Assembly (NCBI GenBank): GCA_013239625.1
Contig: MU053751.1
Span: 1 to 33,290 of the forward strand
DNA length: 33,290 nucleotides
From: Lama guanicoe
Taxonomy: Eukaryota
Reading direction: 5' to 3'
The position numbers and the translations under genes are program-made. The notes beneath the pieces are model-generated. The model was not told the origin of the DNA. It searched no databases and saw only the letters and a list, made by a program, of their open reading frames with translations. This document shows positions 2,857-30,715 of the stretch, piece after piece. Positions within the stretch are counted from its first letter, which is position 1. Each line of letters opens with the position of its first letter.

Positions 2857-2860
2857 GTTT

Positions 2861-8827: not shown

Positions 8828-8839
8828 AAGGGGGAACAC
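8828..8839 (+). promoter_or_regulatory. Polypurine tract
   Basis: AAGGGGGAACAC immediately precedes the TG of the 3' LTR. Confidence 0.7.
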
Positions 8840-9268
8840 TGTGAATGAAAATACTGCAACCATGTCAGTAAACAAAGAATGCTGAATCCAAGTCATCAGC
8901 GGCTGCTGCCAACCCCCAGCGAGGACATGCCTGCAGCCCGGCCTCTCAGTCACTCACAGAGGTGCCCTCTGAGAGGACTGAGAGTACGAAGGAACAGGCT
9001 ACTGGCCCTGGATAGCTAGGTGCTTGTCAAAGGAATGAATTCAATGACCCAAATATTTGCTTCCCACCATACATAGAAAAGCACTAAATACTTGAACTTT
9101 AGATATCTGGTTTTCTTTAGATAACAAGCAATATTTTATTGTTCCAATTACCTGGTCTTTGTTGTAAGCTTCTATATATCCTAGCTCCTCCCCTACCTCT
9201 TGGGAGAAGTCCCTCAGAGTGATCTGAGAGGATGTCATCCCGGCTCGAGTCCTCCAGCCAAATAAAAC
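8840..9268 (+). mobile_element. 3' LTR of the provirus (U5 end unclear)
   Basis: TGTGAATGAAAATACTGCAACC... aligns with the 5' LTR up to AATAAAAC at 9261-9268. Similarity drops after that. Confidence 0.9.
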
Positions 9269-10009
9269 CAAGCCCTTGACAAGCTGAACGTTCAATTAAG
9301 TCCCAGAATAGACACAACTCATCAATTCTGTAATGGAACACACTGAATCAGGAACCAAAAGCATGTTTTATTTCGGAAAAACTACGGGTTCCTTTTTCTT
9401 CCTGTCATTATACAACCCCTCCAGAACTCATTAACTTGATGCCTGCTCCTCTGGCAACCAAACCCATAGAAGAGTCAACTCAGCAGAGCATCCTGCTGGG
9501 GAGAAACCGCCGTACCAGTACTGCAGGCTACCTGCCCTCCCCCACGCTCTGCTGACCCTTGGTGTCCTCCGTGGAGACCAGGCCAACAGAGCTGTTCCCA
9601 ACAGCTGCAAAGTCGCACACGTTTAATTAATCATTTGATTTTATACGATATTTTACATATATAACCATCTCTGAAAACAGCTTTGCCAGAAGCCCAAATC
9701 TTCAACATCAATCCCCAAAGGCAAATCCGTTCCCCAAGGGGAAACAAGACTTAAGACGACGCTAAGGCCTCCACAGTCCTCTCAAGGACCGTCAACCAAA
9801 CTGCCTGCAGGTCTGCAGCTGCAGGCGGTTACATGTCTGCTTTTAAAGCAACCCCTTCCTGCCCTCGGGTGTTACAGTGTCCCTCTACGCCCTCCCGTCT
9901 CAGGGTAAGAGCAGTCGCTGCAGAACCTTGCAGGGAAGCACTGACAGGAGTCGACAAAGAGGATCAGAGCTAAACTCAGCCTTCTGATGACACGAGCTTG
10001 TCACTCTGT

Positions 10010-10090
10010 CACTTTACAGATGAAGATATATATAGAGAGAGGTGGGGTGATATTCCTCAAAATCACACAGCTAATAAGTGGAAAAGTCTA
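10010..10090 (-). mobile_element. MIR fragment
   Basis: TTTACAGATGAAGA...CAAAATCACACAGCTAATAAGTGG. Confidence 0.55.
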
Positions 10091-11419
10091 TAACTCTGTT
10101 CTTCCCTTAAGCGTGACGCCCAAGCTGGGACCCCCACAGGTTTCTCTCGTGCCTGGCTGAACAGTCCTTTCCTGTCAATCATAACCCACCAGATTGTCTG
10201 AACCTAGCCTGCCTTTTCAGCATCTTTTCCCTCCAGTCTCTCAGGAACAAGGTGGTTTGGGCCACTGTATGACTCCCGGCTCCCAGAAACCTCAGTGCTG
10301 ATGCTGCTCATGCCTGTGCATCCGGCCACCTGCTCAGAAGCTATTCCTCCCCTGCAGGAGGACGTTTCCACTCTCCGCAGGGACACTCCATCAGGGAAGC
10401 CCTCTTCTCACCCTCAGCACGGCAGGTGTCCCAGGCCACATCCTGACCTGCCACATTAGGACTGGGGGTACCCAGGTCTGCTAGTCAGACCAGCAGCCTC
10501 AGAGCCAGGGATTACGCCCGGGCCACTCTGCAAACCTACTACCCGTCTCACAGCCCCCAGCCAGCAGGTCACCTGGAAGTCACAGCAATTGCCCCACCCA
10601 ATCCAGAAGCCTCTTTATTTGCCAGCACCGCTGATGACTGGTCTCCAACCTTTGGTCAGGTTTGCACAAAACAGCACCTTCAACTGTGAAGCAGGGGGAT
10701 TTTGCTTCTGCTCCCCATCCTTACTGGAAACTTTAAGGGAAACGAAGAGGTCTTTTCTCAACACTTTTATGATGACACCCTCCCAACCGCAATACTCATA
10801 TGCTCAAGAGCTTTGGATCCACGTGATTTTGTTTCCCTTACGGTAAGTGACACAAAACACTGCGGGATTCTTCCTCTTTTGAGGGTATTTGTACTCAGTG
10901 TATCGGCTTTAATCTGTTTTTGTCTCTCTCTTCAGTATCCCTAGCAGTTGCCATCTCTTACTCCCTTCAGCAGCCGCCCTCCCAACAGCTAGTCTAGGAA
11001 ATCAGCTATGATGAGGGGCCCGGGGTCAGTCACAGAAGATGCAACTATGGCACAGAGAGGCTACATAATTTGCCCAAGAAGATCAGTTTCAACCCCCAAC
11101 AGTGTGTGTCAAGCCCCTCTGTTTAACTCTTATGCTAAGCAAGATAACTTTTTGTAGATTATGGTTATAAACATATGAGGTATAAAAATACATACAACTA
11201 CACACATCAACTCTAAGATGTTCACTAACTCCACTATTTTGTATCTATTTCTTTCTATTAAAAAAAATTAAGAACCTCTGCAGTCAGTATAGCAAAATCT
11301 TATTGGGCTTTAAGTCCAGATTATAGAGGTGTTAAGTGTGTCATTACTCATACTTATTTGTATATTCACAAGACAAAATGATTTGAAAGTCCCTCTTCCC
11401 TCCCCCTACTCACTACTGG

Positions 11420-11850
11420 CTCTCACCTGAGCTCCCAGACCACACATTTAACAGCCTTTCACTTTACCCACAGCTGAACTCATCAGTTTTCCCCCAGAAA
11501 TCCCTCTGCAGCTTTCCCATCCTCACAGCAAAGCAGGACCATCATTTACCTCATTAATCCACACAAAAACCTGGGCCTTACTCCATCCTATATTGACAGA
11601 CAGCATTCATCCTTTTCTTTTTATCTTCTGAACATGCTTTCAATCTGTTCGCTTTTACCCACTGATCGTCCCATCGCTCAAGTGGAAGCCACCAACACTG
11701 TCCACCTGGACTCACGAGTCTCCTAAGTGGCCCCAGAGCCACTCTCCCCTACTTGAGACAAATGGGATTGTGTCACTTCTGCGCTTTTTGGACTCATTTC
11801 AGACCCACTGTTCTTAGAAGAAACTCCAAGTTCTTTACATGGTGAAGGTC
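11420..11850 (+). mobile_element. L2 LINE fragment
   Basis: Pyrimidine-rich tract with CTCACCTGAGCTCCCAGAC, CTGAACTCATCA, AAAAACCTGGG, CACCTGGACT and ATTGTGTCACTTCT, typical of the L2 3' region. Confidence 0.6.
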
Positions 11851-12543
11851 TTTGTCATGAAACTGTCAGCTCAGGGAGGGCAGGACCCGCCCTCTCCCTT
11901 CGGCCCCACCCTCTGGCAGAGCATCAGCTTGGGAGGACCTGCTGACCTACACCAGCCTGTATTCTAACCCTGGTCTTGAGTTCTTAGCAAACTGCTTCAC
12001 TTATCCATACAAATCCAAGGTAGATTAGAAAGATTTTAGATGTTGAGCAAGACTATTGATTTGAAGATTTTGCACTAACAACCTGCAAGGACATGTTCTA
12101 ATGATTCTGTCTTCTTAAAACCACACCCAGATTAAAGGAGTATTTGTGGAATGTCTTCGGAGTAAAAGGGAATGTACTTTTACAGACTTTATGTTTTTTA
12201 ACATGAACAACCCGGACAGGGTCACAAATGGAACCGCCTCACAAGTGACAGAAGACAGGAGAGAGGCACAAAGCAACAGGTCGCAAAGATGGTAAGAGCA
12301 AAGTTGATTCTCCAACCCCCGAAAAACCCCTGAAGGAACCAAATTTCTGAATTTTAAATGTAAAAGACTATCATATAGAGAAATGAAATAAATAATCCTC
12401 TTCATCAGGGCTTCAAGATCTGACTCCAGAATTTTTAGCAGGCCATACTGAATCCTAGCACAGAAAAATCCCATGGACTAGTGGTGAGAAATTTCCAGGA
12501 AAACTGCACTAATTCCTCAACTGCTGTAAGGACATACACTCAC

Positions 12544-12667
12544 CAGCCGAAGGTGAATGTAGACCGCATTCTGAAGAAATTCGGAAGCTTCCAGGCTCCG
12601 CTTCTGGATGCCGAGGACACGGACAGCTTGGATGCATGCTTCTAACTCAGTCGCCGGCATTCTTACA
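12544..12667 (-). pseudogene. TRAPPC9: TRAPPC9-like exon with 2-nt deletion and intact splice sites
   Basis: Minus strand reads cctccgtttcccctgtAG|TGTAAGAATGCCGGCG--ACTGAGTTAGAAGCA...CACCTTCGGCTG|GTGAGT. It translates [41 protein letters not shown] against recalled [42 protein letters not shown] (about 34/42 identical). 124 nt versus 126 expected. Confidence 0.92.
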
Positions 12668-13828
12668 CTACAGGGGAAACGGAGGCCCCCAGTCAAGAGC
12701 AGAGATGTTCCTGTCGTGTATCACAGGCCATGCCTCGGGAACTCAGTGCCCTGCAGCAGCCCAGCCCCAGGCGAGGACACGCAGCGCGGCCCACCCAAGC
12801 AGGAGGGGCACTGTGCTTGAGAAAGCCCATCTCCGATGGGGGCAAGAAGGGCTGGTGTTGTTGAGTGAACCTGTAAATGCCCACAGAAATATGCCTGCAT
12901 TCATTGAAGAGATACAAACAACAGTAGCCGGCTATTTAACATAATTTCAATTGTCAGTGGAAATTTTGCCATCCCTTTCCGCTTGTCCCCAGCACTCTGA
13001 GACTGGCTTAGGCTCTCTTACACCTGCAGCTCTGTGCAATAGTTGTGAAGTCATTTTACTTTGCTGCAAGTGTCCTCATTCCCAGGTTTCACTTTTTCTG
13101 TCCTCTCTTAACACAGTCGGATATCTTCCTGGATCTCTCCCTGAGTTACATGCTCCTCCTCCTCAGATCCTGAGATAAAGGTCAAATGAAGACACATGAC
13201 CAGAAAAGGTACTGTGGACTTGAACGAAGTCCTCAGTGACCACCTAGTGAGTGCTGCCCACCCCTTACCATCGATTATCAAGGTTCTGCCCAGGGTGACA
13301 TCCAGCCCAGAGAGGCAGCCCAGGCCAATTCAAAGCTATGTGGCTTGGGCGCGGGGACAGGTACAGGAGCTGGTTCCGGAGCCAGGCCCTCCCCACCTCT
13401 GCTCCCCTCTCTACCGAGGCCCTGCTGCTAAGCACTCAGGCTCTGTGATCTTATGTCCTGCTCTTCTACTCTACTCCAAACACTTTTCCTTTTCTTTTTC
13501 TCCCAAATTATCCCCAGCTGGAGTGATTTTTCAATCACAGTATCTGAAAAAATTTCCTGAAGCCTAAAAACAGGTCTCCAGAGGTCAATGCCCATATGCT
13601 ACATCCTGAAGAGAGCCCCTGGCTAGGGGAACCCTCACCAACATTCACGGGGCATCAGACATGTTGCAGGGTCGGCCACCCCCAACAAGAGTTTGCTGTC
13701 ACCCCAATGCCCGCATAGCATCCCTGCTTACAAAACTGTAGTTGGCCCACTTGTCACTTAGTAAGAAGCAAAAATACAAAATTGCTCATGTTTCTTACTA
13801 AAATTATCTATGAAGCTGAAAAGTGATT

Positions 13829-14368
13829 TGTAATAAAAAAAAGAACAATTTTGACCCTATGTTTGATCTGTTCCTTTGGCTTTAAACCTGTGCCCTGTTT
13901 TCTAGGCTCAGACTTGGTACCTCTGCACCAGTTGTAAAAGGAAGTTTCCTTTAGCCTGAAATCTACAGGAAACCCTATTCTCCGGGCCCTGATCTTTAAA
14001 AATGTTAGCTCATCTGCACTTCTGTAGAGATGGCAAGTTGCAAAATAGAGAATAACCTTTTCTTTTTTGGAGGTTTTACAGGGGCATAATGATTTGATCC
14101 ACATGGACAGCTGCAAGAACAGCGGATTCAAAGGACAAACAATTCATACAGCAAGAAGTTTGCAACAACCAGGCACAACCCCGCCCCTCTTTAGTATAAA
14201 AGGAGACTGAATTCTGACTTGGGGAAAATGGTTCTCCAGGACATCAGTCTGCCGTTTTCTGGGTCTGCCAGCGTTGCAAATAAAGTCACTATTCCTTGCT
14301 CCAACACCACATCTCCTGGTTTACTGGCCTGTGATGTGGCGAGCAGAACGAGTTTGGACTCGGTAACA
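13829..14368 (+). mobile_element. Solo ERV1-type LTR
   Basis: TGTAA...GGTAACA termini. GC box CCCCGCCC at 14179-14186, TATAAAA at 14195-14201, AATAAA at 14279-14284, and the typical U5 end GGCGAGCAGAACGAGTTTGGACTCGGTAACA. No clean TSD seen. Confidence 0.8.
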
Positions 14369-14690
14369 AAATGACTGCATTGGAGGTAGTATGTCTCCAA
14401 TGTTTCCTCGTTTCCAATATGTAACATGCACATCATTTATGATCTAGTGCAAATAATTCATCAAAGACAACCACAAAAAGAAACTATACTCACCTAGCTA
14501 TCAACACTGAAATCACATCCTGTTAATTTTATACGCTGTTTAACAACACAATGGAAAAACCTAACATAGGGAGTTGATTCCATGGAAATAAAATTATTTC
14601 TACTCCTTCAATACTTTTTCTTTTCTTTTCTATTTTATTTTGTTTTGCTTATTGAAAGGAAAATAAAATTCAAATCATTTTATTTCACAT

Positions 14691-14730
14691 ATTTTTGTTA
14701 TAGCTACATTATTTTTGTTATAGCTACATT
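14691..14730. repeat. Exact 20-bp tandem duplication
   Basis: ATTTTTGTTATAGCTACATT twice. Confidence 0.95.
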
Positions 14731-14874
14731 CTTTAAATACTACAAAGAGAATTAAATTGCAAAAAAATTGTTCATATATTAGTATAAATATATATACACA
14801 ATCAATGGGGATTAGGAAAGGAATGGACATTTACTAAAAATCCAATGCAATCCAGTCTTTTCAAGCATATCCTG

Positions 14875-15000
14875 GAATATAAGCTCTATGATCCAAGTGG
14901 CCCCACCCCCATTCTCACTGCTGAGTCCCTTAGTAATCAACTACTAAGGCATCAGCATAGAACCATATGATCAGTATTTGAGGAATAAATGAGGGAATTA
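14875..15000 (+). mobile_element. L2 3' terminal fragment
   Basis: TAAGCTCTATGA...TTCTCACTGCTGAGTCCC...CAGTATTTGAGGAATAAATGA resembles the L2 tail. Confidence 0.5.
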
Positions 15001-15044
15001 ACTCATTCAATTCTAAAACAAAAACCATAAAATAAATACAGAAC

Positions 15045-15155
15045 TTATTTACAGATAAAGAAAATTGGAACCCAAAAAAGTAAAGTTACTTCCCCAAGGT
15101 CACAAAGTTAATAACTGATAAAGACAATATTTGAACTCATCTGCCTGATTCTAAA
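15045..15155 (-). mobile_element. MIR fragment
   Basis: ATTTACAGATAAAGAAAATTGG...ACTTCCCCAAGGTCACA...ATTTGAACTC...CTGCCTGATTCTAAA. Confidence 0.7.
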
Positions 15156-15429
15156 AACTAAGGTGGAAATCCCATTCGACTGGGGAGGTTCCAGCAGCAC
15201 AGCCTATCACCCTATCTTTCTTCAGATCTAGCCTTAGACAGCCTGAGACAGCACCCCTTCCCTATGGAACTCGAGGGCAAATGATAACAATAAGGATTTT
15301 ATATCCAGTAGTTTGTTAGGTCTCATTTATATATAGTGTCAGCAGGTCAGCAGAAAAACTCTGGAAAATAAGAGTGGGTCCAGAGCTTTTTGCTGATTAG
15401 TAACTCAGTCTATCAGGACATAGTGACCT

Positions 15430-15680
15430 TCCCATGAGAGGCCACATGGACATAAACTAAAGGAAGCTGAGCAATGAAAACTAACACAAGCCTGGAACTC
15501 AAGCAAGAAAGATCCCTGCCATCCCCCAACCAGTTGCCTCTTAACCCGCGTGGACACGATGGCAGGAGACCCAGGTTCTTGTCCAAGTTACACCATCATG
15601 GATTCTCACCCATAAAAATTTATGACTCTATGCTGTCTTAAGTCGTTTAAAACTCAAATATGATAACAACAATATCTCAG
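15430..15680 (+). mobile_element. MaLR (MLT1-like) LTR fragment
   Basis: GAGAGGCCACATGG...AACTAAAG and GATTCTCACCCATAAAAATTTATGA...TGCTGTCTTAAGTCG resemble MLT1 motifs. Confidence 0.45.
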
Positions 15681-15872
15681 CAGAATATCTATGTCTCCAC
15701 TTCCTCTCTTATAATAGGAGAATATTTCTATGGACACAAAGCAGAAATCCAATTTAAAAAACCATTCACGAAGCCAGGCGAAATTCTGCTTAAGAGACTT
15801 TGCTCTCACGCTCAGTAAATGAAAACTCAGAAAAAGTGGTCCTTCTCCCTGAGCAAATGAGAAGTAGCCTGA

Positions 15873-15907
15873 TGTGTGTGTGTGTGTGTGTGCACGTGTG
15901 TGTGTGT
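15873..15907. repeat. Interrupted (TG)n microsatellite
   Basis: (TG)10 CACG (TG)5 T. Confidence 0.95.
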
Positions 15908-16294
15908 AAATCAAATACAATTAAGTCTGGGACGTGTACAGTTTTTTTTATGTCACTGTCATTTCATGGGGATGAGCCAACATTTAAAGTAATTTGAATC
16001 TAGTGTTCTGAGAGAATCTCAGGCTCTTGGTGGAGGAGATGAAAGGGGAGACTAAAGGGGGAAAGAGGTACATGAAGCAAAGAAGTAAGAATACTTTCAG
16101 GGAAAGGCAAGACGTTAGTTTTGTTCTTCCTTGCACCACATACAAATTAGGGACTCGCTTTCCCCTGAAGACTTATCGAGCACTGAGTTGCAGAAGAAGA
16201 GGCGACAGCTCAATCCTCACTGAGCTTGTGACTGTACTTGGCATCTTATAGACACAAATCATTTACCCTGATCAAACACTCTAGCAGCAGGCCG

Positions 16295-16420
16295 TAATTC
16301 TCCTGTTTTGAGAGACAAGAAAGCAGGAGTTCAATTAAGATATATAACTTGACAAAAGTCAGAGGACCAGTAAACTAAAGAGGATGAATTCAAACACAGA
16401 GTTGAATGCAGACTCTGAAC
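16295..16420 (-). mobile_element. MIR fragment
   Basis: CCTGTTTTGAGAGACAAGAAAGCAGGAG...TAACTTGACAAAAGTCA...GAATTCAAACACAG. Confidence 0.45.
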
Positions 16421-16919
16421 TTCCCACTCCCAGGACTGGAATATCCTTAAAACACAGGCCCCCCAACTCCCCTGCAGTGTTCCTGGCACCAAGCATTTCC
16501 CATGGCAATGGTCACCAGTTCTCACAGACACAGCGCTCTCTGCAGCTAATGACCTTGATCAGACCTTGATCATCTACCTGCCACGCCCACCAGGCTTCAC
16601 CATACAGGCAGGAAAGCTGGCTTTCAAGTGCATACAAAGCCATCCCTGGTCTTATCTGGGCTCCTCTGTGCCTTCTCCAGCCTAAAGGCAGCCATGAAAC
16701 TGCTCACAGTTTGTACATGTGCCAGACTACCTCTCTCCATTTGTCTCCCCGCCTATACTACTTAGCTATGACCATTTTGAGAATCTTGGACACAAATATT
16801 AAAAAAAAAAAAAGAAAGGATTCTGGAGCAAGTACTTAATACTTACAATTTTAAATGACAAGTTACAAAGTGAATACTTACAAACCAAATGTTCCTTTCT
16901 AAATGTCAGTTTTAAGCAT

Positions 16920-18320
16920 TTAAAAATATAATAGCAAAAAATTCTCAATTACAAAATTGACAAAAACATAAACAATAATCTGGAATAAATTCAAAAATAA
17001 TGCCCATGTTCTAAATGGAGAAACTTCAGGACTGTACTGAGGGGTAAAGTAAGTGGTGTGAATGTAGAGACATCAACAAATTGCATGGAGGAATGTGCTT
17101 TTGTAAAGATGTACGTTCTCATTAGAATAATTCAAAACTTACAAAAAAATCCTGTGAAAACTCCAATCTGATTTTTTTTTAACTTGAACAAAATATTTTG
17201 GAATTCTTCAGGAATAATAAAGTCATAATACTAGACAAGAAAATTTGGGATGGAAGAAAAGAATCAAAAAAAATCAGACTGCAAATTATTAAATAAATTT
17301 TTACAATATGTAAGATATGGTGCTGGAGTAAAAAAGGCAGTTTGACAGAAGAGAACCATGAGCTCAAAAAGAGACTGTAGTGTACATAAGTATTTTCTAC
17401 AGGTGGGATTTCAAATCAAAGAGAAAAGTATGACTTCAATAATTGTCCTGGGACAATCAGAGTATCACCTGGAAAGAATAAATTTTATTCCTCTCATAAG
17501 GACCACAAGATAAATTACAGACAGTGATGTAAATATTAAAAAGTACTAATAACAGCAAATACAACACTTTGCTCTTATTAAGTCAACTTAACCTTACATT
17601 AACAAGTACTATTATCATCTCCATCTTAGAGATTAAAAAAAACCTACAGAAGAGATTTATTCCATTATAAGAAAGTATTTCTAGGAATAATGTCAAAGAT
17701 AAAACCTGTAAGGAAGATATTTGCTATCATAAGAATATTTTGAGACACAACCGAAATAAAAAAACCTCCTGAACAAAGTGAAAGGCAAGAAATGACAAGA
17801 AATAGCTCTGTGATACATATTGATGAAGACAAGAAGTTAATGTTCATAACATACAAAGAGCTGTCACAAAGCAACAAGAAGCTACCTCACTTAAATATGT
17901 GCAAAGGATAAAAGGAATCATTCATTTTAAAAAAGTCAAAAGGCTATTGAGTGAAAAATGCTCAATACCTCACTGGTCATGAAATGCAAACTAAAACAAT
18001 GAAAAAGGACTTTTGCTCATCATATTGGCAAATATTTTTAATAGATATTGTAGCTAGTGTCCATCTGTGGGAGAACAAACCATGAGCGACATTTTCGGAG
18101 GACGACTTGTCAATGGATATGTAAACTCTGAAAAACGTACATATACACTGACTCAACACCACTTCTAGGAATCGTTTCCTTTAGGAAAAAAAAAAATTCA
18201 GTCCAAAAAGATGTACCCATTAGGGCATTTACACAGCAATTTTTAAAATGGTGGGAAGAAAAACTGAAGTGAAATCATATCCAGCAATAGAGAATTGGTT
18301 ACATAACTAATTGTGCATCT
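16920..18320 (+). mobile_element. Ancient L1 (L1M-type) ORF2 3' part and 3' UTR, degenerate
   Basis: A-rich + strand with decayed L1 ORF2 motifs: ATATGGTGCTGGAG, TCAATAATTGTCCTGGGACAA, GAAATGCAAACTAAAACAATGA, CCACTTCTAGGAAT, TCCAGCAATAGAGAATTGGTT. No ORF. Confidence 0.75.
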
Positions 18321-18429
18321 TTTCATTCCCCAATGGAGAAAGAATTTCTAGAGTCACTTGAAAGGATTCTGTGATGAATGTAAATGTCACATCCAGGGAC
18401 TAAATTTCCAGAAGCCTTAACTAAAGGAA

Positions 18430-18990
18430 TACTCATACAAGATCACAGGAATGCCTGTACAAGAAGGATGCCAGTCAAACATCCTTTCTGAGAGTGGAAA
18501 ATGGAGAAAACTTAAGTGTCCACCATCAAGACAGTGATGCGGTAAATCACGGCAAGCTGCGAGCACTGAGGGAGCCGGCGTTTCGCCGTGGTCCAGGGCC
18601 TTGTCCACAGCATTCTCCCACCAAAGGTGTGCATGGACAAGAGACCACAGCCGCACATCAGGAGACCCCCCCACTCGATCTGAAAGGACCGTGTGAGTCT
18701 GTAGTTGGAGGACGTCTATGATATACAGCTGAGTGTATAAAGCGAGCTGCAGAAAAACATATAGTATGGTCTCATTTTTAAATAAAGCATATATACACAT
18801 ACGTATACATAGAATTCTCATATGTGTGTATATATGTATGTCATAGGCATAAAGGTCATGAAATATATATACCAAATTTTCGACAGCTTTTACTGTCAGG
18901 AAATAAGGGGAAGGGAGTCAGGGGACTTCCTGTACCACCACAGTTCTATTTTCAGTATTTCAGTTAAGTATACTTGGAATTTAAAAGTTT
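18430..18990 (+). mobile_element. Ancient L1 3' UTR fragment
   Basis: AAAATGGAGAAAACTTAAGTGTCCA, GCATGGAC and AGCGAGCTGCAGAAAAACATATAGTATG resemble L1ME 3' ends. Confidence 0.5.
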
Positions 18991-19464
18991 ATTTAAGTCA
19001 GAAGAAAAGTGGACGATGCCTCCAGAAGACAGAATGCTATACTGGTCATCAAAAATCATGCCAGGGGAGATAGAATATTGTAGAAAAACATATAAATAAG
19101 TCGAATGGAAACTGGAGGTGTCCACACAGAAAACAGGCACAGAGTGCTCTCTGGTTTTTTATGACAGAGGTGATACACAATGACGAAATGATAGAAAAAA
19201 GACGTTAACGTGTTAATTATTATCTTTGATTAGCGGGACCAGGATAGCCTCTTTTGCCCCCTTTTTCAGAATTATTATTTTAAATGTACTTTTTTTATCT
19301 GAAAAAAGCATTTTTAGGTGTTTAGTACCACGCATTGGAGAATAATACATTAATACTTAGAGAAACAAGTAACTAGGAGACAAGGCAGCAGCGTCACACA
19401 ATGTAGAACGGGCGATCCTGATTAACACCATGCAGTTACATAAGGACACACAAAGTGAGAGCAC

Positions 19465-19585
19465 CTGCTGAAACAGGGTGCGGCCCCCTTCTAGTTGTCA
19501 GCAGTGTCTTCAGGGATGAGGTAGTTCTGAGCACGGCCAGTGTCAGTGCTGGTGTCTGGATTGCTGCTACTGGGGGTGAGGGCAC
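19465..19585 (-). pseudogene. TRAPPC9: TRAPPC9-like exon, disabled (acceptor AG>AT, premature TAG, 1-nt deletion)
   Basis: Minus strand translates ALTPSSSNPDTSTDTGRAQNYLIPEDTADN*KGAAPCFS against recalled TRAPPC9 [40 protein letters not shown] (about 21/40 identical). It is preceded by the pyrimidine tract ttctgttcttcctctcggcttgcAT instead of AG. Stop at 19491-19493; 121 nt versus 122 expected from the protein; GT donor at 19464-19463. Confidence 0.85.
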
Positions 19586-22019
19586 ATGCAAGCCGAGAGG
19601 AAGAACAGAAATCATCCTCTGCCTTTTCTTTCTTGTTTCTTTGTTACTTTAAAAGAGAGGCATATATAAGATAAACTGTGTATCTTCCCAAATGAAATTT
19701 CAGTAATGAAACCGTTTTTAAAGTCTTCACAGCGTATATTCTGCCTATAAGTGTTTTTTCAACAAAGATCATATTTCTTAAATGTTAATTAACTCAGTTA
19801 ATTAACTCCCTGTTGAAACATTCTAGTAAAGAACATGAAATGCAGTATGTAAAACAACCACACCTGCACTGACTAGCTCAGCTGTCTTAACGGCAGTGCA
19901 GTCAGCCCCCACCATCCCGTGGCCCTGAGCTCCTGATGCTGGTAAGAGAGCACGCTGCAGCCTCAGATGCAGAGAAACTGTGAAAGCATTTTTTTAACTC
20001 TACAGCACTGACAAAACATAACTGACAAATTCCAGGCTCCCTTGAGGTTGTCATTTTCTGTTTCTTGCCAACCCCCATCAATGAGCAGAACCAACCCATT
20101 CCCGAGCCATGGGAATCACGTGGGGAGGAGTTTTGGAGAAACTTCCAGGTATAGAATGCAACCAACTATACATAGAACTCTCACAAAAGAAAAGATGCAA
20201 TACTCTGATTTTGGAAGACACTCAAAATATTCTTCTAAGCCTAAGTAGCTCAGCCACTTCTTTATTTCACAGCCAGTGAGCATCTCCCACAAACCCTGTT
20301 TCCCTGTGTCTGATGGGAGCCTCAGGCACACTCTTGCTGTCCATCTTGTAAGTCACAGGGAAGAGGCGTGTGTCTCACACCAGCAACCCTCACACAGGCT
20401 CACCTCCTAGCCTGACTGTATGAACTTGGCCCCATTTTCTCACCTGTTTATTTGATATCTGTTCTTCTGTAAGCTGCCTGAAATGCATTTTGGAACATGT
20501 CAGAAGAATGAGTGGGTAGATAAATGAACAGATTGAGAGGTAAGAGATGGGAAGACAGACAGAGAGACTCCAAGAAAAGGGCTACATATAAAATTTCCTA
20601 TGCAAAACCCTCTTCTAGTCAGGGAAGGAAACCACCACGGAGAAGTGTGAAGAGGCAGGTAGCTTAGGACTGTTTCCTGAATTCCATGAAAAGTCACACC
20701 AAGAGATGAGAGGGTAGAACTTATATAGTAAAAGAAAAAAAGCATGCATGCTTGAAAAATATATCTACAATATGTACTTTCTAAAGAATAGATTCAAATC
20801 AGCAGGGCCCAATGACACTATCCTTGGGTATTTACAGAAGTGAGAATCCTATCTCCAAACCACAAGGCATCCCTTCGGAGCACTGAGAGTCTACACGGGG
20901 CGGTCATAAAGCCGTCACCGCAAAAGATATGCGATCCTGCACTTACGAGGAACGAGCAGCTGTGCTCGGGCTGCCCACGTGCATCATTTACACCCCACAG
21001 CACCTCTACGGGGGGGGGACGCCTAGGGAGCCCCGTCTCTGCAGGACAGAAAACCAGTTCTGGAGAGGCTAAGCCGACCTACCATTTCTCCATCTCACAG
21101 GACTGGTCACTCCAGAGCAGGACTCGAACGCGGACCCACGTTTGTAACCACGGTACTACCGTGATTTGTGTGCTGTGTGTGTGTATAATACATTTGTTTC
21201 TAGCATGAAAGGATATTTAATAAATGATCGGTTGTCTTGTCTATCTCATTAGCTCACAATCAATCTTTATACTGTTGAATTGTACTCTTTTCCCCTGGAG
21301 AAAGGAATGGAAACAGCGGGGGTCAGAATGAGGTGGGGCTCCATTCTTTATCTGGTACCTCATCTCATCCAAGTCCCCAACCAGGGAGAAGGAGCAAATG
21401 TTCTCTTCATCTTTTAAAGTGAGGGCTTCACTGATGGTGATTTAGTCAACTCCAAAACCAAGGTTGGGAAAAGGGCACATGCAGCAACTAGAGCAGTATC
21501 AGCTGTAGGAAGGCGAAAAGAGCTCATGGGAGAGTTCAAGGGGCAGCTGATTTAGTTTCACTCTATAAAACAATAACACACTCTAAAAATACTAGCATAC
21601 AATGGATTTGCTGTTTCTTGACATCTAGCACTTTTCCACAGCCCACATGTAACATTATCGTGAACCAGTTAAAGGAAGAGTCCACAGACAGGAAAAATCA
21701 ATGCCACAGGAATGCTGAAACCCAGGCTGGAGGAAAGGAAGAGAAAGGGCATAGTTAAGAAGTGGGGAAAGGCTGGGAAAAAAAAAATCATCACAATGAC
21801 TCTGAAGCATCATCCTAGAATCATATAATCATTCATTCAAGAGAGAGTTACTGAGATCCTATTCTGTGCAAGATTGTACAGCAGGCAAAGCAAGAGCGAA
21901 GCGTCCATGGTGGCAGCAAGTTGCGGGGCTCAAATACACTTCTGATCCCGGTACCTTGCACACTTGTGCTCAGTATAAAGTCAAAGAAAACAAAAGTAAA
22001 ATAATACTCTGTAAACTCA

Positions 22020-22310
22020 AAGCATTGTTGAAACAAAAGTTAAAGAAGACCTAAATACCAGGACAGACACTCCACGCACATTCCTCTATCAAAAGACAGC
22101 GCTCTTAGGATGGCAGTGCTCCCCAAGGTGATCCGTATACTCAGCATGGCTTCGATCACAATCCCTGCGGGCTCCTCTGCAGTAACTGACTATCTGCTGC
22201 TACAATTCATATGGGAAATCGAGGGTCTCAGTAACCAAAACATACTTGGAAAAGAAGAACAACGTGAGAGGACTTGTAATTCTCAATTTCAAACCTTACA
22301 ACTGTATCTC
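22020..22310 (+). mobile_element. L1 ORF2 fragment
   Basis: ORF 22110-22313 MAVLPKVIRILSMASITIPAGSSAVTDYLLLQFIWEIEG matches L1 ORF2p MAILPKVIYRFNAIPIKLP...LKFIW. Confidence 0.85.
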
Positions 22311-23254
22311 TAGGTGAGATTAGAGGCCATTGTGAAGTTATTTCTATGTTTATTCTTATTTTCTAAATTCTCTACTATGAATATAACTGTTACAATAATA
22401 AAAATGAAAAGTAATTTATCCTTTAAAACATGCACACCGATTCATTGATTGGGAAAAATTATTTTATCAATAAAGATATAAACAAATATCTAGTGAAAAA
22501 GGACTACTTAAAAACAAGAGTGCATTTTCATTTTTCATTAATTGAAAACTGAAAAGCACAAACACATCAAGTTTCTAGGGAGACCAATGCAATATATTAA
22601 TAGTTATTTTCAAAAATTCTAATTGAACAATGAAAACTCAGAAAAGGGAAAATCGTGATTGACAGCCAACTGCAAACACATGGAGATCAAAGGCCTAGAA
22701 ATCACAGTTCCTTTAACTCTGCTCCTAACACAATAGGAGAGGAAATTCCTCACTGAGGGGACAGTGGAATCCCATGCATAAGACAGGATACACAGTACAA
22801 ACTGCACTAGAATTGGGGGTGATTTTCTTAGAAGAATTCTAAAGTTACAAAATTGCTAAAAAACTATTAAAACACTGACAGAAAGATTAAAACACAAAGT
22901 CATATATATTACATAGAAACATATGAAGTCTGCTCCCATGTTGCATAGAAATACAAACATATTTGTTCATTTATGGGCACTGATTACTTTATACCAAATA
23001 GAATATTTCAACTAAAATAATTAATCAATATTACACCCTCTTGTTAAATCTAGTTGATAAATTATTCTGCTATGTAACCATAATGTGTCTAAGATAGATC
23101 TAAAATTAGTGAAAAAATTCTTCTTATGGTTTTTTGAACTATTCTCAAAATACAAAGCTTAATTTTAAAACATATCTGAGCAGTAATTCTATATTACCTT
23201 TTCCCTCGTGAAATGAACAACACAGTCTTTTGTCAAAATTCTGTCCTTACAATG

Positions 23255-23375
23255 ATTCACGAGCACCGTATCCTCACAAAACTGCTGGACAGCAAGGCAC
23301 TATCCAGACACTGTGACCCAACAAATGAAACACAAGTAAGACAGTGACCCTATTCTGGAGGGCTTATAGTCTGTC
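23255..23375 (-). mobile_element. L2 3' fragment
   Basis: GAGCACC...AGGCACTAT...TAAGACAG...CCCTATTCTGGAGGGCTTATAGTCT resembles the reverse L2 tail. Confidence 0.45.
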
Positions 23376-23966
23376 ATCACCGGGGTTTTTATTTGATTGA
23401 TTTGATTGGTTGGCAAAATAAAATCAATCAAGTACCTTCTTTTTTGTGCATTCTGTAAGTCATGACTGTTTTTAATGTCATGAACAGGAAAGACTTAAGC
23501 ATGACTTGATTAGGTCAACTAGCAACAATCATCACTGGATTGTGAGTAATAAAGAAGTTAACTGATAGCAATGCTTCTGCCTACATGAGACCTAAAATAA
23601 ACCTACACTGATCTCTGTCAGGACAATGAGGAGATAAGGTCCCCAATGAAAAACATGAGGGTCTCCCACAGCACTGGGTAGCTTTGACACTGATATGTCA
23701 GTCAAATTCTCTGCATCTCAGTCTCCGATCCATAGACTGGGGACAACAGCACCCGTCTCCTAGAACGGTCCTATCCTNNNNNNNNNNNNNNNNNNNNNNN
23801 NNNNNNNNNNNNNNNNNNNNNNNNNNNNNNNNNNNNNNNNNNNNNNNNNNNNNNNNNNNNNNNNNNNNNNNNNNNNNNNNNNNNNNNNNNNNNNNNNNNN
23901 NNNNNNNNNNNNNNNNNNNNNNNNNNNNNNNNNNNNNNNNNNNNNNNNNNNNNNNNNNNNNNNNNN

Positions 23967-24920
23967 CAAAGGACACAGAAAGTGGAAAAACAGAGAGGAG
24001 AAAATTTTTTCAAATCATTTATCTGATAAGGAATTTGTATCTCAAACAAACAAACAAAAAATTCCACAGCTCAACAATAAAAAGGCAAGGCAATTAAAAA
24101 ATGAATAAAGGATCTGAAAACATATTTTTCAAGGAAAATAAACAAATGGCCAATAAGCACAATGAAACAATGTTCAATAACACTAGCTCTAAAGGAAATC
24201 AAGTCAAAACCACTAGGAGAAACCGCTTCACACTCACTACAATAGGTTATAATCAGAAAAAGAGTAACAAGTTCTAATGAGGACACAGAGGAAGCAGAGC
24301 ACGCAGCCCTTGCTGGTGAGGATGTAACACAGCGTGGCCAGTTTGGAAAACAGCCTGGCAAGTCCTCAGAGAGCTGAACATTTGATTTCAGAGTGATCCA
24401 GCAATTCTGCTTCCTGGGCACACAAGTAAGAGAATTGAAAACAAATGTTCACATAAAAATTCCTACAGGAATATTCACCGCGCCATTACTAGTCAGAGCC
24501 AAAAAACAGAAACAACTCAAATGTCTATCACGTGATGAATGGGTAAACAGAGGGGCTCAGCCATACAGTGGAATATTATTCAGCAATAGCAAAGCATAGA
24601 GTACTGACCCAGGCCACAACGTGGACAAACATTGAAAACGTTACTCAGTGTGAAAGAAGTCAGTCACAATAGATGGTTCCACTTACATGAAGTGACTCGA
24701 TTTGCATGAAATGTCCAGCACAGGCAAATCCACAGAGAGAGAAGAGGGGCTCCCTGGGGCTGGGGGATGGGAAAGTTGGGAATGTCTGTTTATGCATACG
24801 GGGTTTCCTGTTGGGGAATGAAAATGTTCTAAGATTGACTAGGATGCACAATTCTGGGCATAGAGTAAAATCCACTGTACATTTTAATGGGTGAATTGTA
24901 TTAAAACTGTTAAGAACAAA
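23967..24920 (+). mobile_element. L1 (L1MB-like) ORF2 C-terminus and 3' UTR
   Basis: ATCTGATAAGGAATTTGTATC, CAAATGGCCAATAAGCACAATGAAA, TTTGGAAAACAG, GATCCAGCAATTC, GAGAATTGAAAACA, ATGTCCAG...AGGCAAATCCACAGAGA, GAAAATGTTCTAA and ATGGGTGAATTGTA. Confidence 0.9.
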
Positions 24921-27547
24921 AGCACCTCAGTCTAGTACCTTCCCATAGTAAATGCAAATTGCTAACTTTTATTACAAGAAGAAGAAACTGCCCTCAGCAT
25001 GAAATTAGGAGATCAGCAAATGTGAGTTACCCGAAATTGGACAAGAGCATTTCACTTGAAACAGTTGCTGAGTGTACACGAAATATTCAGACATGACAAG
25101 GAAAATCAGCTTGACATCACGAAAAAGCATTCTGCTTCAAATGCAAATCAAGGATTCGGCAAGCCCAGCTGGTACAAATGACCAGAGAAGAAACCTGGTT
25201 CTTAAAACAAGCGCCAGAGCCAACAAGGAAATTGTGGTGAGGAAAGCAGGTGGCCGAAGATCTGGAACAGTTTGCTACAAATAATTTCTCCAATGAAAAT
25301 TCAAAAATAAAATGAAAGTGATGCAATGCTGTGTTGACCTCACGTGAATGGGCTTCCTACGGTGCTCGACAGTTCTTTAACCACGAATGGGAGACTCAGA
25401 AGAATCAAGATAGCTCCTGGAAGTCCCCAAGTTACTGCCCACCAGCACGCTGACCACCATCACATCTGCCAGGGTTAAATTCCAGAAAACAGACCAACTT
25501 CTGAAAGGCACAGGAAATGTTGACAAGAAAAGGCTGCAGTCAGTCCTGGGACAGAGGCCCTGAGAGCAGAGGCCAGAAGGCTGCAGGTGAACTGGAGTGG
25601 CCCTGGGGCAGGAAGGGAACATGGGGAAGCAGATCTCAATTATCTTCTCTCTCTCCCTCGGGTAGGAGAGATAAAACCTGCATCCTTCTCACCTAGAACT
25701 GTGGGTTCTGGCTGGCAGAAATCTTACCTACAGGGAATGAATTACTCAAGACTGTGGAAAAAGGAAAGAAAGCAAGAGGGATTAGGGAGCCAACTCCACG
25801 AGTCTCTCAAATGCTCCCATATTTATTGTGTATAATCAACGAAAAAGTCATTAACAGTTGTGTGATAGTAGACAGAAACTTGGGGAAAGACAGGATGAGA
25901 CACAGATTGTAGATCCACCATAAGTACAAAGGCTTAGTGTACCTATAGGGAAGTCTTGGGGAGAGGGAACAAGATACATTCTTTAGACATGTTCATTACA
26001 CAGCAGAACACCAGACCAGCCAGGTCCCTGTTTTGGGGCTAATAGACTAACACCACGCAGGCCCAGCGTTTATATCTGAGGGCCTGGGTCATTGCTGTAC
26101 AATGAGCAGAGTGCTATCTAAAACCTCAACTATGCAAGCAAGGCATTGTCTCTGCTTTTTATGGCAAGGAGACAGGAGTGTGGATGCACAGGTGCTTGTT
26201 TAAAAGCAGTTACTAAGCACATTTTTTCTTCTTAAAGTTGACAGGCGGCTGGGGTGTGTTACAACCTGTAAACCCAATCATGGGCTCCCACATGGAACCA
26301 TTATTGAGGACATGCTAGGATGACAAATCCTGGCTCTGGGTCTTTTCCTGCCAGATTCGGCCACTCCAGCAGGGTCTAGACACATCCCTGAATAACGATC
26401 CCACAGAACCACCTAAACTCTTAACTCCTGGTGCTTGAAACTTAATTTTAGCTCTACACAACTTAATGTAGAAAAGTTTCAGAAATAAAAGATATTATAT
26501 TCTTTTTATATCTCATCGTATTACTGATTTTTCTGATTGCTCTAAGCTGCTTCTACTAAGTAAAGCACCTAATTCTGCAGGTGAATTCAGTACATTCCTT
26601 TGGGCATAACTAGACAGTCTGGGCTGTCTGACTTCTATTAGTCAAATACCGATACACATAATTGATTTCTTTGTTCATCTATTTCAGCCTGGAGGTGAGG
26701 GTCTGTCACTATTTTCCTCAGCCCACCCTCTTCTCTTTTCTCATCAGCATCTCAGGCCTCCAGAAAACAAAACAAAGCATTTGTTTCCCTTAATCTACAC
26801 TTTCCACAAAGGCAACAGGAATCATCAGCCTAGAGAATGAATTCAACACAAATGTTAAAACAAAAATCTACAAACCTGAAGCAACTCCATCTCCGAATCA
26901 TGATACACAATGACATGAGAGTAAGTGTGTCAGGCACAAAGCATGCGTGAGCCTGACCACCTCATTTCTATTTTTCAAAGGAAGGAAGGTTTTCCTATTT
27001 TTTCTTATCATTCTTTGTCAGTTTCTGATTAAGCCAAAAAATCATTTATGAAATAATTAAGCACTGCAATAACAGACTTTCGCTGTATCAATTACAGAAG
27101 GCATTCAGAGGGGATAGGAAAACCCATCTCTGTAAAAAATGAAAAATTTTTCCCCTTTAAGAACACGTGTACAAAATGCAGCATAGAATTCAAATTCTTG
27201 TGGAGAAGACAAAAGCCACAGAATCAAAGCAAAGTCATTATTATGACTCAATTCAAAATTCACTGGACAAACATGCTCAATGCATTCAAATAATTTTAAA
27301 GGCACACTGCAAACCATTTACTTAATTATCTGCAGGCTAGAGGAAGAATTTCCCTCTTTAACAGACAATATAAATCAATAGGTTGCCCCACCAAACGAGG
27401 AACAAACATCAGGTTTTTAACAGTTCTGATAAGTCAGCACGTTCTAAAGATCAAAATCCAGAAATTTTAAACATTCATTCACACCAGAATGAAACAAGCA
27501 CCTAAAAAAAAAAAACCCCAGAGAAACTAAACACATTGATCACGGAC

Positions 27548-27574
27548 CTGGATCAATGAGAAATTCTTGTTCAG
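27548..27574 (-). pseudogene. TRAPPC9: TRAPPC9-like 27-nt micro-exon (duplicated/pseudogene copy)
   Basis: Minus strand reads tacttttttccAG|CTGAACAAGAATTTCTCATTGATCCAG|GTccgt. It is 27 nt, phase 1-1, and encodes xEQEFLIDPG against recalled TRAPPC9 GAQEVLIDPG. Both splice dinucleotides are intact and it is colinear with the two downstream exons. Confidence 0.8.
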
Positions 27575-28431
27575 CTGGAAAAAAGTACAGGCTATATATA
27601 GCCTTTTACTTGAAAAATAAAACTACTTTTAAAGATAACTGCTGAAACATCATACATGTTGCCTTGAAAAATCTGAGGCACTTGTCTCTGATCAGAAAAG
27701 CAATTCTGAGTATTAGTATGTTACAATTCAGTGCCAGTTTGCTTTAGAAGAAAAAAGAAAAGCTACTGTTCCTCATCCTGCACAAAGTGTAAAGAACCTC
27801 CCTGCCTCTATCTCCTCCCATTTTCTAAGCTCATGCTCCCCAACCCTTCTGAAACATGTATGAGAACCTCTTATTCCCACAAATATGCCAAATGACAAAA
27901 GAGTATCAATTTATTTGTGTAAATATATACCTACACCTTGAACTGGAGGAGAAAGGTATAAGAAGGCTATATGGAAATTATTCCTACATTCCTGAAATCA
28001 CACACAAACACACGTTCACAGAGACACAGACATATACACACTGAATTACTGGGTATTTCACAAGCTAAGGACTTCCAACTTCTAGAAGATAACTTTGTAG
28101 TTAGTTTAAAATACAAAACTGTCAGCTTTTGAAAGCCTTGAATATTGCTAAATCATCCAAATATCAAAGAGACCAAATTAGCCTTCTCTGTAGAATGTAA
28201 TTTCCCATGATGGCAAAGCGAACCCTAAGAAGTAGTGGATCCAAGACTCGTGTTTCTCACTAACTATGATCGTTTTTAAACACGTAAACAGATTCAGAAA
28301 GGTATGTCCGTATGACATTTATTCTTATTGAAATAGCATATGTATTCAATTGTCTATGCAGAAAATAGGTCCCATGATGGTGTTTAAGAACTATTTTGTG
28401 TATTGAAATATTTATTATTAAGTGCAGACAA

Positions 28432-28566
28432 GGAGGGTGGGTATTACTCCGTTATAGAGCACCTGTTGAGCATGCACATGTTCCTGGCTTCAATTCCCAG
28501 TACCTTCATGAAAATAAGTAAACACAAGTGCTTATTTAAAAATAAGAATAAATTTATAAAAAAAAA
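28432..28566 (+). mobile_element. tRNA-derived SINE, camelid (vic-1-like) type
   Basis: GGGTATTACTCCGTTATAGAGCACCTGTTGAGCATGCACATGTTCCTGGCTTCAATTCCCAGTACC plus an A-rich tail. The decayed A and B boxes match the recalled camelid consensus GGGTATAGCTCAGTGGTAGAG...AGCATGCA.GAGGTCCTGGGTTCAATCCCCAGTACC. Confidence 0.75.
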
Positions 28567-29199
28567 TGAAGATTAAAAACCACTGCAATCTAGGAGACAC
28601 AATTATAATAAAAAACAAGTGTTTCTATCAAATATTGACTATATGCCAATCACAGAGACGACCACAAATCACATCTGACCACCATCACGTGTGATTCTCA
28701 GCAATCCTACTAAGTAGACACTGATGAGAAACCCGGCTCTGCGGATGAGGAGACGGAGCTCGGAGGAGCCGGGGACGCTGACCGCCCTGCTCCCCGTGAC
28801 AGCGCGTCAGCCCAGGGCAAGCGCTGACGGAGCTGCTCTGAGGGGACACCCAGCTGCATGGAACCTTGGGGGTACTGGGGAGTCCCAGAAAACACTCAAA
28901 AGTGTTCAGTGAAAAACCAGCTCAAATATATTACACTGTGCCACATCCTCTAAACACAGAACATGACTGAGACCTATTTGATGCCCCCGTGTCCTTTCTG
29001 CCATCATCAGTTACTTGCCCTCTCAGCACGACCAGTGATGAACTGGACCCTTTATGAAGTGCACTCAGATGGCAGAGCTTTTAAAGCTGTTTTATGAAGT
29101 TTGTAAGACTCTGTCTATCCATCACTTCTCACCGGTGCGAATGTACCACATGAAATCACACCTTTCTGCTTTTTAAAATTCCTCCATGTAATACACACT

Positions 29200-30302
29200 T
29201 TTAAAAGGCAAAGAAGTAGCTCAACTACACACAGTGGACAGCTTTTCACCAAATGGACTCGAACAGCCCATCGCAATACCTGGAAGCCCTTTTCTTCTAT
29301 TAAACCCACTTCCAGGTACTTCATCATTTTCTGACTGGTGGACTTGGCCTCTGACTGGCCTAATCAGAGAGCTCCCATCCTCACATCCGGGGGTGGGAGA
29401 GGACCCTGCTGTTGGGAAAAATCAGTGAGGAAGGTGGACATTCTCCAGCCATGTCTGCATGGGTAGAAATGCCACAAAATGCTCAGAAATTATACCGTCA
29501 GCACCCCTGGGCTCCCATGGACTGGTTTCACATTAACCAAATTTATGACACACTGATGCAAGAAAACCAGAAATATAATTTATTAATGTAACAGAAGATG
29601 TGAAACTATGAAACAGACTGACATATCAGAGTTCCAACAAGAGTACAGTTTCTCCTCCACAGCCCAATCACGGGCAGGTAGTCACATGGTAAGCGTGGAC
29701 AGAAGCAGAGCAGGAAGGGTTTCTAGATTAACTCAATGGACTAAATTTCTATTTAAAAGGCAAAGAAGTAGCTCAACTACACACAGTGGACAGCTTTTCA
29801 CCAAATGGACTCGAACAGCCCATCGCAATACCTGGAAGCCCTTTTCTTCTATTAAACCCACTTCCAGGTACTTCATCATTTTCTGACTGGTGGACTTGGC
29901 CTCTGACTGGCCTAATCAGAGAGCTCCCATCCTCACATCCGGGGGTGGGAGAGGACCCTGCTGTTGGGAAAAATCAGTGAGGAAGGTGGACATTCTCCAG
30001 CCATGTCTGCATGGGTAGAAATGCCACAAAATGCTCAGAAATTATACCGTCAGCACCCCTGGGCTCCCATGGACTGGTTTCACATTAACCAAATTTATGA
30101 CACACTGATGCAAGAAAACCAGAAATATAATTTATTAATGTAACAGAAGATGTGAAACTATGAAACAGACTGACATATCAGAGTTCCAACAAGAGTACAG
30201 TTTCTCCTCCACAGCCCAATCACGGGCAGGTAGTCACATGGTAAGCGTGGACAGAAGCAGAGCAGGAAGGGTTTCTAGATTAACTCAATGGACTAAATTT
30301 CT
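29200..30302. repeat. Exact 551-bp tandem duplication with a 1-nt spacer
   Basis: 29200-29750 equals 29752-30302 (period 552; no mismatch found by reading). Identical ORFs at 29234 and 29786. A single A sits at 29751. Confidence 0.97.
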
Positions 30303-30494
30303 GTTATGCGAACATATCTGCCGCCAAGAAGACAACGCCAATCACGGTGCACTCTCCGTGGACAGTGGCTGAGACACGACTGTGAGCACCTGTATAATTC
30401 TCCTTTCCCTGTCCTTTCTGGGCTAACTGATACACAGAGGTACAGAAATCTATGGATGCAGATACCTCTAAACACCCAAAGCCCATCCCTGGGA

Positions 30495-30715
30495 GCCTGG
30501 AAACCAGACAGCCAGGGTTTAAATCCCAGCTCTGCCACTTACTAGCTCTGTGACCTTGGCCAAATTACTTACCCTCTGTGTGCTTCAATTTCCACACTGT
30601 AAACCTGGATAACAATCAAATCTTTCTTACTCACTTGTTGTGAAGATTGAAGGATTTATTTCTGTAAAACTCTCAGAAAAGAATGTAGCACATTTTTGGT
30701 GCCCAACAAATGTCA
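30495..30715 (+). mobile_element. MIR SINE, near full length
   Basis: CCAGACAGCCAGGGTTTAAATCCCAGCTCTGCCACTTACTAGCTCTGTGACCTTGGCCAAATTACTTACCCTCTGTGTGCTTCAATTTCC closely matches the MIR consensus. Confidence 0.9.

Follow-up and report, generated by a model that had tools for sequence, protein, structure and literature searches.

The window, meaning the whole 33,290-nucleotide stretch of guanaco (Lama guanicoe) DNA analysed here, is very probably one dead unit among about 100 copies of a 5' piece of TRAPPC9, making no TRAPPC9 protein and evolving as neutral repeat DNA. TRAPPC9 (NIBP) is a TRAPPII subunit, and Pfam finds PF08626 in the pig reference protein. Exon order, splice sites and introns of the window derive from this gene, whereas the window's family is a 5' fragment only, with a stop, frameshifts, a lost acceptor and exon deletions.

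Exon remnants in the window and the intact parent gene

A tblastn search with pig TRAPPC9 (P0113) gave three minus-strand matches in gene order: 27578-27546 (8/11 aa, E 7, weak alone), 19583-19464 (47.5%, E 3e-6) and 12648-12538 (81%, E 3e-12). Exon borders and lesions were determined by aligning the window to the intact TRAPPC9 of the same guanaco genome. The 27-nt micro-exon is considered real because the intron DNA around it aligns collinearly over 3.5 kb. The duplicated TRAPPC9 DNA occupies positions 505 to 32738, beyond the 12544..27574 delimited by an earlier sequence-only reading, and contains the following features:

505..31855, minus strand: intron and exon DNA collinear with the parent (C55226:31,049,512-31,072,161; 76-80% identity), with copy-lineage insertions between
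31859..32738, minus strand: continuation of the duplicated DNA, matching parent 31,083,139-31,083,999
27548..27574, minus strand: micro-exon remnant, 27 nt, pig aa ~288-296, AG and GT intact
19465..19585, minus strand: middle exon remnant, 121 nt (parent 122), pig aa ~297-336, from the parent alignment
12544..12667, minus strand: last window exon remnant, 124 nt (parent 126), pig aa ~337-378, from the parent alignment
2362..9299, no strand assigned: ~7-kb insertion without counterpart in the parent, between two LTR-like repeats (84% identical, K2P 0.168)
13806..14369, minus strand: solo-LTR-like insertion without counterpart in the parent, present in 14/14 other copies compared
16888..18437, no strand assigned: ~1.5-kb insertion without counterpart in the parent, in 10/14 other copies compared
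29202..30305, no strand assigned: 552-bp head-to-tail duplication (551/552 identical), missing from the parent and from the copy on C729

Of the ~100 copies, 22-24 entered the alignments of the last exon and 6 those of the middle exon; they had been picked for similarity to the window or for the size of their contig. The TAG stop (19493-19491) of the middle exon and the loss of 1 nt at its 3' end are present in 6/6 copies aligned, and the loss of 2 nt close to the 5' end of the last exon in 24/24. The AG>AT acceptor change of the middle exon (19587-19586) is private to the window (1/6 copies). All four lesions had been noticed by the sequence-only reading, and its three minus-strand exons in TRAPPC9 order likewise held up in both the tblastn search and the parent alignment. 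The stop, the two frameshifts and the lost acceptor rule out a functional orthologue in the window, and the presence of introns rules out a processed pseudogene. Collinear introns, lesions, neutrality of one exon (below) and an intact parent together characterise a duplicated, non-processed pseudogene, as had been proposed. The exon peptide had no match to PDB sequences at E 10, the window peptide none in Pfam and the window none in Rfam; Tandem Repeats Finder reported only four short arrays in the window.

The 31855/31859 junction is a deletion of ~11 kb that removed two parent exons and is missing from the C729 copy. Judged by its anatomy, the 2362..9299 insertion reads as an ERV-type element; 3 other copies seem to retain a solo LTR in its place. 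The start motif of the 13806..14369 LTR has 315 matches genome-wide, and alpaca RefSeq models use part of this LTR as an exon. The 16888..18437 insertion looks L1-like by eye, and the 29202..30305 duplication may be either a recent event or a scaffolding artefact.

The parent lies on scaffold C55226, where its first coding exon (31,088,503-31,089,090) is 96% identical to pig. The seven 5' exons translated, covering aa 1-450, are open, with 83-100% identity. The usual gene order is KCNK9 - TRAPPC9 - AGO2. On C55226, a Piwi-domain (Argonaute) gene lies 56 kb from TRAPPC9 on one side and a two-pore K+ channel gene ~110 kb away on the other; this is the expected neighbourhood, which the window's contig does not show. 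A search with the C-terminal 671 aa placed 14/17 matches on C55226, down to 30,693,122, and the remaining 3/17 in a processed-type fragment on C55224, finding no copy of the 3' exons besides these two. Given the parent's expected neighbourhood and its seven open 5' exons, the lineage-specific gene loss once considered is excluded.

A family of about one hundred copies

A motif from the third exon has 98 matches on 82 contigs, compared with 1 for a control motif. Searching with window DNA returned 118 candidates, of which the 40 scored all had 87-100% identity, and counting loci by tblastn recovered, besides the parent, 40 decayed first-exon copies at 55-67% amino acid identity. On 10 contigs, same-strand copies are spaced 54-70 kb apart, as in a head-to-tail array. 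One inverted copy pair and one 33-kb spacing are present too. The window is 91-94% identical to the C729 copy over ~20 kb and 84-92% identical to other copies. It thereby qualifies as a segmental duplication (at least 1 kb at 90% identity or more, by the definition in PMC2796684) through C729, identity to the parent being merely 76-80%.

Among 22 copies compared over 2.8 kb, K2P distance is 0.112 between copies (0.037-0.170) and 0.234 to the parent, and 11/20 inner branches of the copy tree are strongly supported. The closest pair differs by 3.7%, too divergent for alleles. Taken by itself, the window, with its three decayed exons and introns, could pass for a solitary old duplicate or paralogue, or even for the only, broken TRAPPC9 of the genome. 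The intact syntenic parent, the 98 motif matches and the distance within the closest pair make such a lone locus scarcely credible, and both the gene-loss and the lone-paralogue readings were rejected.

Since the stop and both deletions occur in every aligned copy, the master must have been dead before amplification. A TRAPPC9 5' piece with its introns, spanning at least the first coding exon through that encoding pig aa ~379-450, would have been duplicated once in the camelid lineage. The master copy would then have been inactivated by the stop, two frameshifts and a 1.6-kb deletion, and would have taken up LTR/ERV insertions. A roughly hundred-fold amplification would have followed on many chromosomes, for the most part in head-to-tail units of 54-70 kb; the AG>AT change and the 11-kb deletion would be later, private damage to the window unit. 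In the 1.6-kb parent stretch, no duplicon copy was found among 40 scored of 196 candidates. Nine copies retain an exon missing from most, matching the parent at 83-90% there, and may be a less decayed sub-family.

Three copies were retrieved from multi-Mb scaffolds, and all three are situated 70-190 kb from the end of a scaffold. Alpaca TRAPPC9-like models occur on 13 different sequences of chromosome scale (over 20 Mb), which argues against one sex chromosome. The family would have spread through unequal crossing-over and ectopic exchange between repeat-rich short arms or ends of chromosomes, and the copies may be located in heterochromatin.

Pseudogene-rich blocks in alpaca (NEK10-like, ATF5/FMN2-like and ABHD17A-like), explained by segmental duplication and decay, resemble this family in consisting of multiple decayed copies of gene fragments within repeat-rich camelid DNA (PMC13751797). 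Those blocks comprise 5-19 copies, largely confined to a single chromosome for each gene, and camels lack them or have them in reduced form (PMC13751797), whereas the TRAPPC9 family counts ~100 copies spread over many chromosomes and is found in camels as well as alpaca. The string 'TRAPP' is absent from the main text and one text supplement of PMC13751797, and a literature search that barely covered subscription journals found no paper on camelid TRAPPC9 amplification.

TRAPPC9-like models and the re-opened frame

RefSeq lists 'TRAPPC9-like' models in alpaca, dromedary and Bactrian camel (XP_072828367.1, XP_064340332.1, XP_074214656.1), which carry the re-started peptide of the window's last exon. 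Together with the TRAPPC9-like family row (0/4/8 copies) in Table 2 of PMC10568864, they contradict, at the level of annotation, the earlier statement that no TRAPPC9 paralog had been described. Neither the models nor that part of PMC10568864 gives an account of the ~100-copy array, the shared lesions or the neutrality.

These models raise the question of an expressed core duplicon, in which the 2-nt deletion and a new ATG (12660-12658) re-opened a TRAPPC9-derived frame of ~120 aa, fed by the LTR and cryptic exons, and founded a young camelid gene family. The new ATG lies in the TRAPPC9 frame in 23/24 copies. Models of 120-149 aa in all three camelids cover the last window exon and the next, others join the LTR (14331-14221) and intronic pieces (25460-25343, 24827-24681) to the exon, and the spliced, multi-isoform predictions suggest that some copies may be transcribed. 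Five runs recorded as RNA share 6-9% of window words, which as word shares alone are no evidence of expression.

However, the last exon drifts neutrally among the copies: 23 of them show 62 nonsynonymous, 19 synonymous and 3 stop changes against a neutral expectation of 57.4/22.8/3.8, giving an omega of ~1.3 with stops at chance level, and among 22 copies the exon is no more conserved than the intron (p 0.109 versus 0.102). These results led us to reject selection on the re-opened frame across the family. Moreover, the models have many different flanking exons and are all XP predictions, and none of four camelid models has a Pfam match at E 0.01. We consider this gene-family reading unlikely. 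Primate core duplicons (NPIP, TBC1D3, GOLGA8, LRRC37) carry expressed, often selected open frames. They share with the TRAPPC9 family a gene-derived unit amplified in one lineage and chimeric spliced models; here, unlike there, amplification began from a master already dead, and the exon tested is neutral.

Mutation spectrum among the copies and its meaning

The ratio of transitions to transversions among the dead copies is 0.8-0.9, compared with 1.91 among dispersed copies of the same LTR, a shift led by C>A and T>A. For singletons the values are 0.64 and 1.13, respectively. This transversion-rich spectrum is new here, as is the indication that most of the divergence from the parent lies on the copy lineage. 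The duplicate stands as proposed; its age may have been overstated in calling it old, because much of the ~20% divergence seemingly arose on that lineage.

Base-call errors are transversion-rich. Copies or odd substitutions could be products of a fragmented short-read assembly, as consensus errors or chimeric contigs: the assembly has 55,231 contigs, the window contains 2,049 N, near-perfect local duplications occur, and no sequencing run has half of the window words. Across 20 runs from 11 studies, the best shares 31%, with paralogues alone supplying 25-28%, and these shares are no evidence of the window's presence. Yet shared alleles are transversion-rich too (1.02 for those in 2-3 copies, 0.90 in 4 or more), dispersed LTRs of the same assembly have a different spectrum, and the strongly supported inner branches speak against an artefact. 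In addition, a 39-aa peptide of the C729 copy equals alpaca model P0012 from another assembly, and transversion-derived residues recur in RefSeq models. An assembly origin is very unlikely.

A transversion-prone, faster mutation process may act in the copies. It is conceivable, though we hold it only tentatively, that repeat-rich chromosome ends or short arms of camelids mutate 2-3 times faster with transversions roughly doubled, the duplicate being much younger than 20% divergence implies. Several finer readings were dropped: a polymerase signature, the clustering of multi-base changes being too weak (41 adjacent pairs versus 29.6 expected); lost CpG mutability, the singleton count being biased and the recount (CpG transitions 2.4 times non-CpG) limited to sites that had already survived; and the parent-only 1.6-kb stretch as an age-matched control, it being a very old repeat.

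Human segmental duplications have a Ti/Tv of 1.78 versus 2.06 (PMC10172114), and in human acrocentric short arms the rate is 10-fold higher, with CpG>TpG reduced and C>G and A>C increased (preprint PMC12724521). The transversion excess is common to all three systems. The shift in the TRAPPC9 copies (0.8-0.9) is larger than in human, and comes from paralogue divergence, not de novo mutations; its lead by C>A and T>A is unlike the human short arms.

In itself the window locus is unremarkable, being a dead member of a duplication family. That family inflates annotation, adding TRAPPC9-like protein models by the dozen that have already been tallied as a gene-family difference between camels, and in camelids it will complicate read mapping and variant calling for the 5' half of TRAPPC9. 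It also marks several megabases left on small contigs and scaffold ends by short-read assemblies, up to 5-7 Mb for ~100 copies if the units are whole. Because base-level alignment of the parent, the master and ~100 descendants is feasible, the family offers a direct non-primate test of whether duplicated or heterochromatic DNA has a mutation rate and spectrum of its own. If the faster, transversion-rich process is true, the ~100 copies would be a natural mutation-accumulation experiment, and the human acrocentric short-arm pattern would be matched in a second mammalian order, over millions of years.

The window copy and the intact TRAPPC9 gene

The window spans positions 1-33,290 of the 36,899-bp contig C1588 in the Lama guanicoe assembly (2.05 Gb in 55,231 contigs). 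Its closest protein relatives are RefSeq models from camels and alpaca. Matches to the pig TRAPPC9 protein (P0113) occur at three minus-strand sites that follow the gene order. Alignment to the intact gene of the same genome, the parent on scaffold C55226, delimits the exon remnants as follows:

27574-27548, minus strand, TRAPPC9 exon remnant of 27 nt
19585-19465, minus strand, TRAPPC9 exon remnant of 121 nt
12667-12544, minus strand, TRAPPC9 exon remnant of 124 nt

The same alignment shows an acceptor AG>AT change, a TAG, a 1-nt deletion and a 2-nt deletion. The sequence-only reading, which had described three minus-strand exons with these four lesions, is borne out in every point. The window tracks the parent from 31,049,512 to 31,072,161 and resumes at 31,083,139, with 76-80% identity, introns included. 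In the window, an 11-kb deletion took out a parent exon retained in only nine copies, together with a neighbouring exon, while C729, a contig with another copy, carries a different deletion of 3 kb. The window is a real pseudogene fragment, correctly described, and belongs as a single unit to a large duplication family of camelids. A putative short tRNA-type SINE at 28430-28510 looks camelid-specific. A 552-bp tandem duplication at 29202-30305 (551/552 identical) is absent from the parent and C729; a similar near-perfect local duplicate occurs in another locus, on C7847, and both are possibly scaffolding artefacts.

The parent's first coding exon (C55226:31,088,503-31,089,090) is 96% identical to pig. 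Residues 1-450 are encoded by seven stop-free exons with 83-100% identity across the matched stretches, the lower values arising because the match extends into intron. The C-terminal 671 residues gave 17 matches, 14 on C55226 (down to 30,693,122) and three on C55224; the parent's 3' exons are known from these protein matches, some of which list internal stops. The three on C55224 belong to a decayed, processed-type fragment (18,636,286-18,636,820) that joins four internal exons at 81-87% identity to the parent. A Piwi-domain gene begins 56 kb to one side of the parent and a two-pore K+ channel gene lies about 110 kb on the other, matching the positions expected of AGO2 and KCNK9. Synteny of the kind suggested earlier is found at C55226, and the gene loss raised as an alternative is excluded by this gene, its open exons for residues 1-450 and its expected neighbours.

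Size and layout of the duplication family

All 40 matches scored out of 118 candidates for a 221-bp query were 87-100% identical. A 19-base motif with at most one mismatch had 98 matches in 82 contigs (copies with more mismatches escape), against one for the reversed control; two of the 98 lie 437 bp apart and appear to be an assembly duplicate. At least 40 decayed copies of the first coding exon and dozens of the exon following the window's last exon are present, while the C-terminal search of the assembly found no duplicon copies of later exons. Same-strand copies are spaced 54-70 kb apart on ten contigs, as judged from the spacing of matches. Among the mostly head-to-tail arrays, inverted pairs occur at C895:172,442 (+)/264,924 (-) and C6476:43,281,369 (+)/43,291,802 (-). 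The nine exon-keeping copies (C8444, C12517, C1686, C9139, C2417, C837, C6062, C7458 and C32389), 83-90% identical to the parent there, are possibly an older or less deleted sub-family.

The family is already visible in RefSeq annotation. Alpaca pseudogene-rich blocks resemble it (PMC13751797); TRAPPC9 is unmentioned in that paper's abstract, text passages and one text supplement, although its supplementary figures could show these arrays. 'TRAPP' is absent from the main text of PMC11513024.

Order of events and coding potential

All six aligned copies carry the TAG and the 1-nt deletion, and all 24 aligned at the last exon carry the 2-nt deletion; the acceptor change is found in one of six. 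LTR-type insertions missing from the parent are common to most or all compared copies. These shared lesions and insertions indicate that duplication, inactivation and insertion came first and amplification later. Over 2.8 kb in 22 of 24 copies (two were left out for coverage under 80%), K2P distance was 0.234 between copies and parent and 0.112 (0.037-0.170) between copies, and the tree was star-like, with 14% internal length. The distance between the window's two LTRs (0.168) equals the deepest copy-copy split, which places the start of amplification soon after the element inserted. The LTR-bounded insertion of about 7 kb (2362-9299) is full length in the window, but three other copies (L015, L017 and L021) seem to retain only a solo LTR from it.

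A C>T change creates an ATG, and in 23 of 24 copies the 2-nt deletion brings this ATG into frame with TRAPPC9, which explains the 120-150-aa RefSeq 'TRAPPC9-like' models. This re-started peptide and some sub-family residues are common to camel and alpaca models, so the master, the single ancestral duplicate, predates their split, over 11 million years ago (PMC13751797), as part of the amplification probably does too. Further RefSeq camelid models splice LTR and intron pieces to a TRAPPC9 exon (window 14331-14221, 25460-25343, 24827-24681, 16244-16176 and 13156-13054). Derived alleles in 23 full-length copies comprised 62 non-synonymous, 19 synonymous and three stop changes (expected 57.4, 22.8 and 3.8), and last-exon conservation across copies was not above that of intron windows; we read this exon as neutral. 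In word counts, sequencing-run shares were what paralogues alone would supply.

Substitution pattern and rate among the copies

The pairwise transition/transversion ratio (ts/tv) among 22 copies was 0.89, and by allele class 0.78 (one copy), 1.02 (2-3 copies) and 0.90 (four or more). Seven more segments, comparing the window with 4-14 copies in non-independent pairs, gave 0.82-0.95. Camel SNPs have a ts/tv of 2.29-2.44 (PMC6946651). Dispersed copies of the same LTR in this assembly (13 of 14 used; selected by exact motif and carrying sub-family differences) gave 1.91, against 0.86 in 15 duplicon copies; in cross pairs, transitions were equal and transversions in excess. Singletons away from gaps numbered 85/75 (transitions/transversions) in dispersed and 77/120 in duplicon LTRs (Fisher p 0.01). 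Restricting the count to singletons halves the control value, which shows that the ratio depends on the method, but the contrast is about 1.8-2.2-fold under either count. The processed TRAPPC9 fragment differs from the parent exons, CpG-rich coding DNA, by 59/21.

Where the pig and parent bases match at non-degenerate, non-CpG sites, the C729 copy differs at 58/511 (0.114, 95% CI 0.087-0.144; introns 0.153) and the window at 25/151 (intron value 0.179). This suggests that about three quarters of copy-parent divergence lies on the copy lineage. The C729 changes at these coding sites are transition-rich (41/17); this, the sub-family differences and motif-based choice of the dispersed LTRs and the missing outgroup DNA count against the reading and leave the rate claim only suggestive. 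The first coding exon of that copy (C729:132200-132780) has 26/6 transitions/transversions at non-degenerate sites, unlike its introns.

The substitution pattern among the copies is new in this analysis, with human parallels in segmental duplications (PMC10172114) and acrocentric short arms (PMC12724521). The main value of the window's copy lies in this pattern and in the size of the family.
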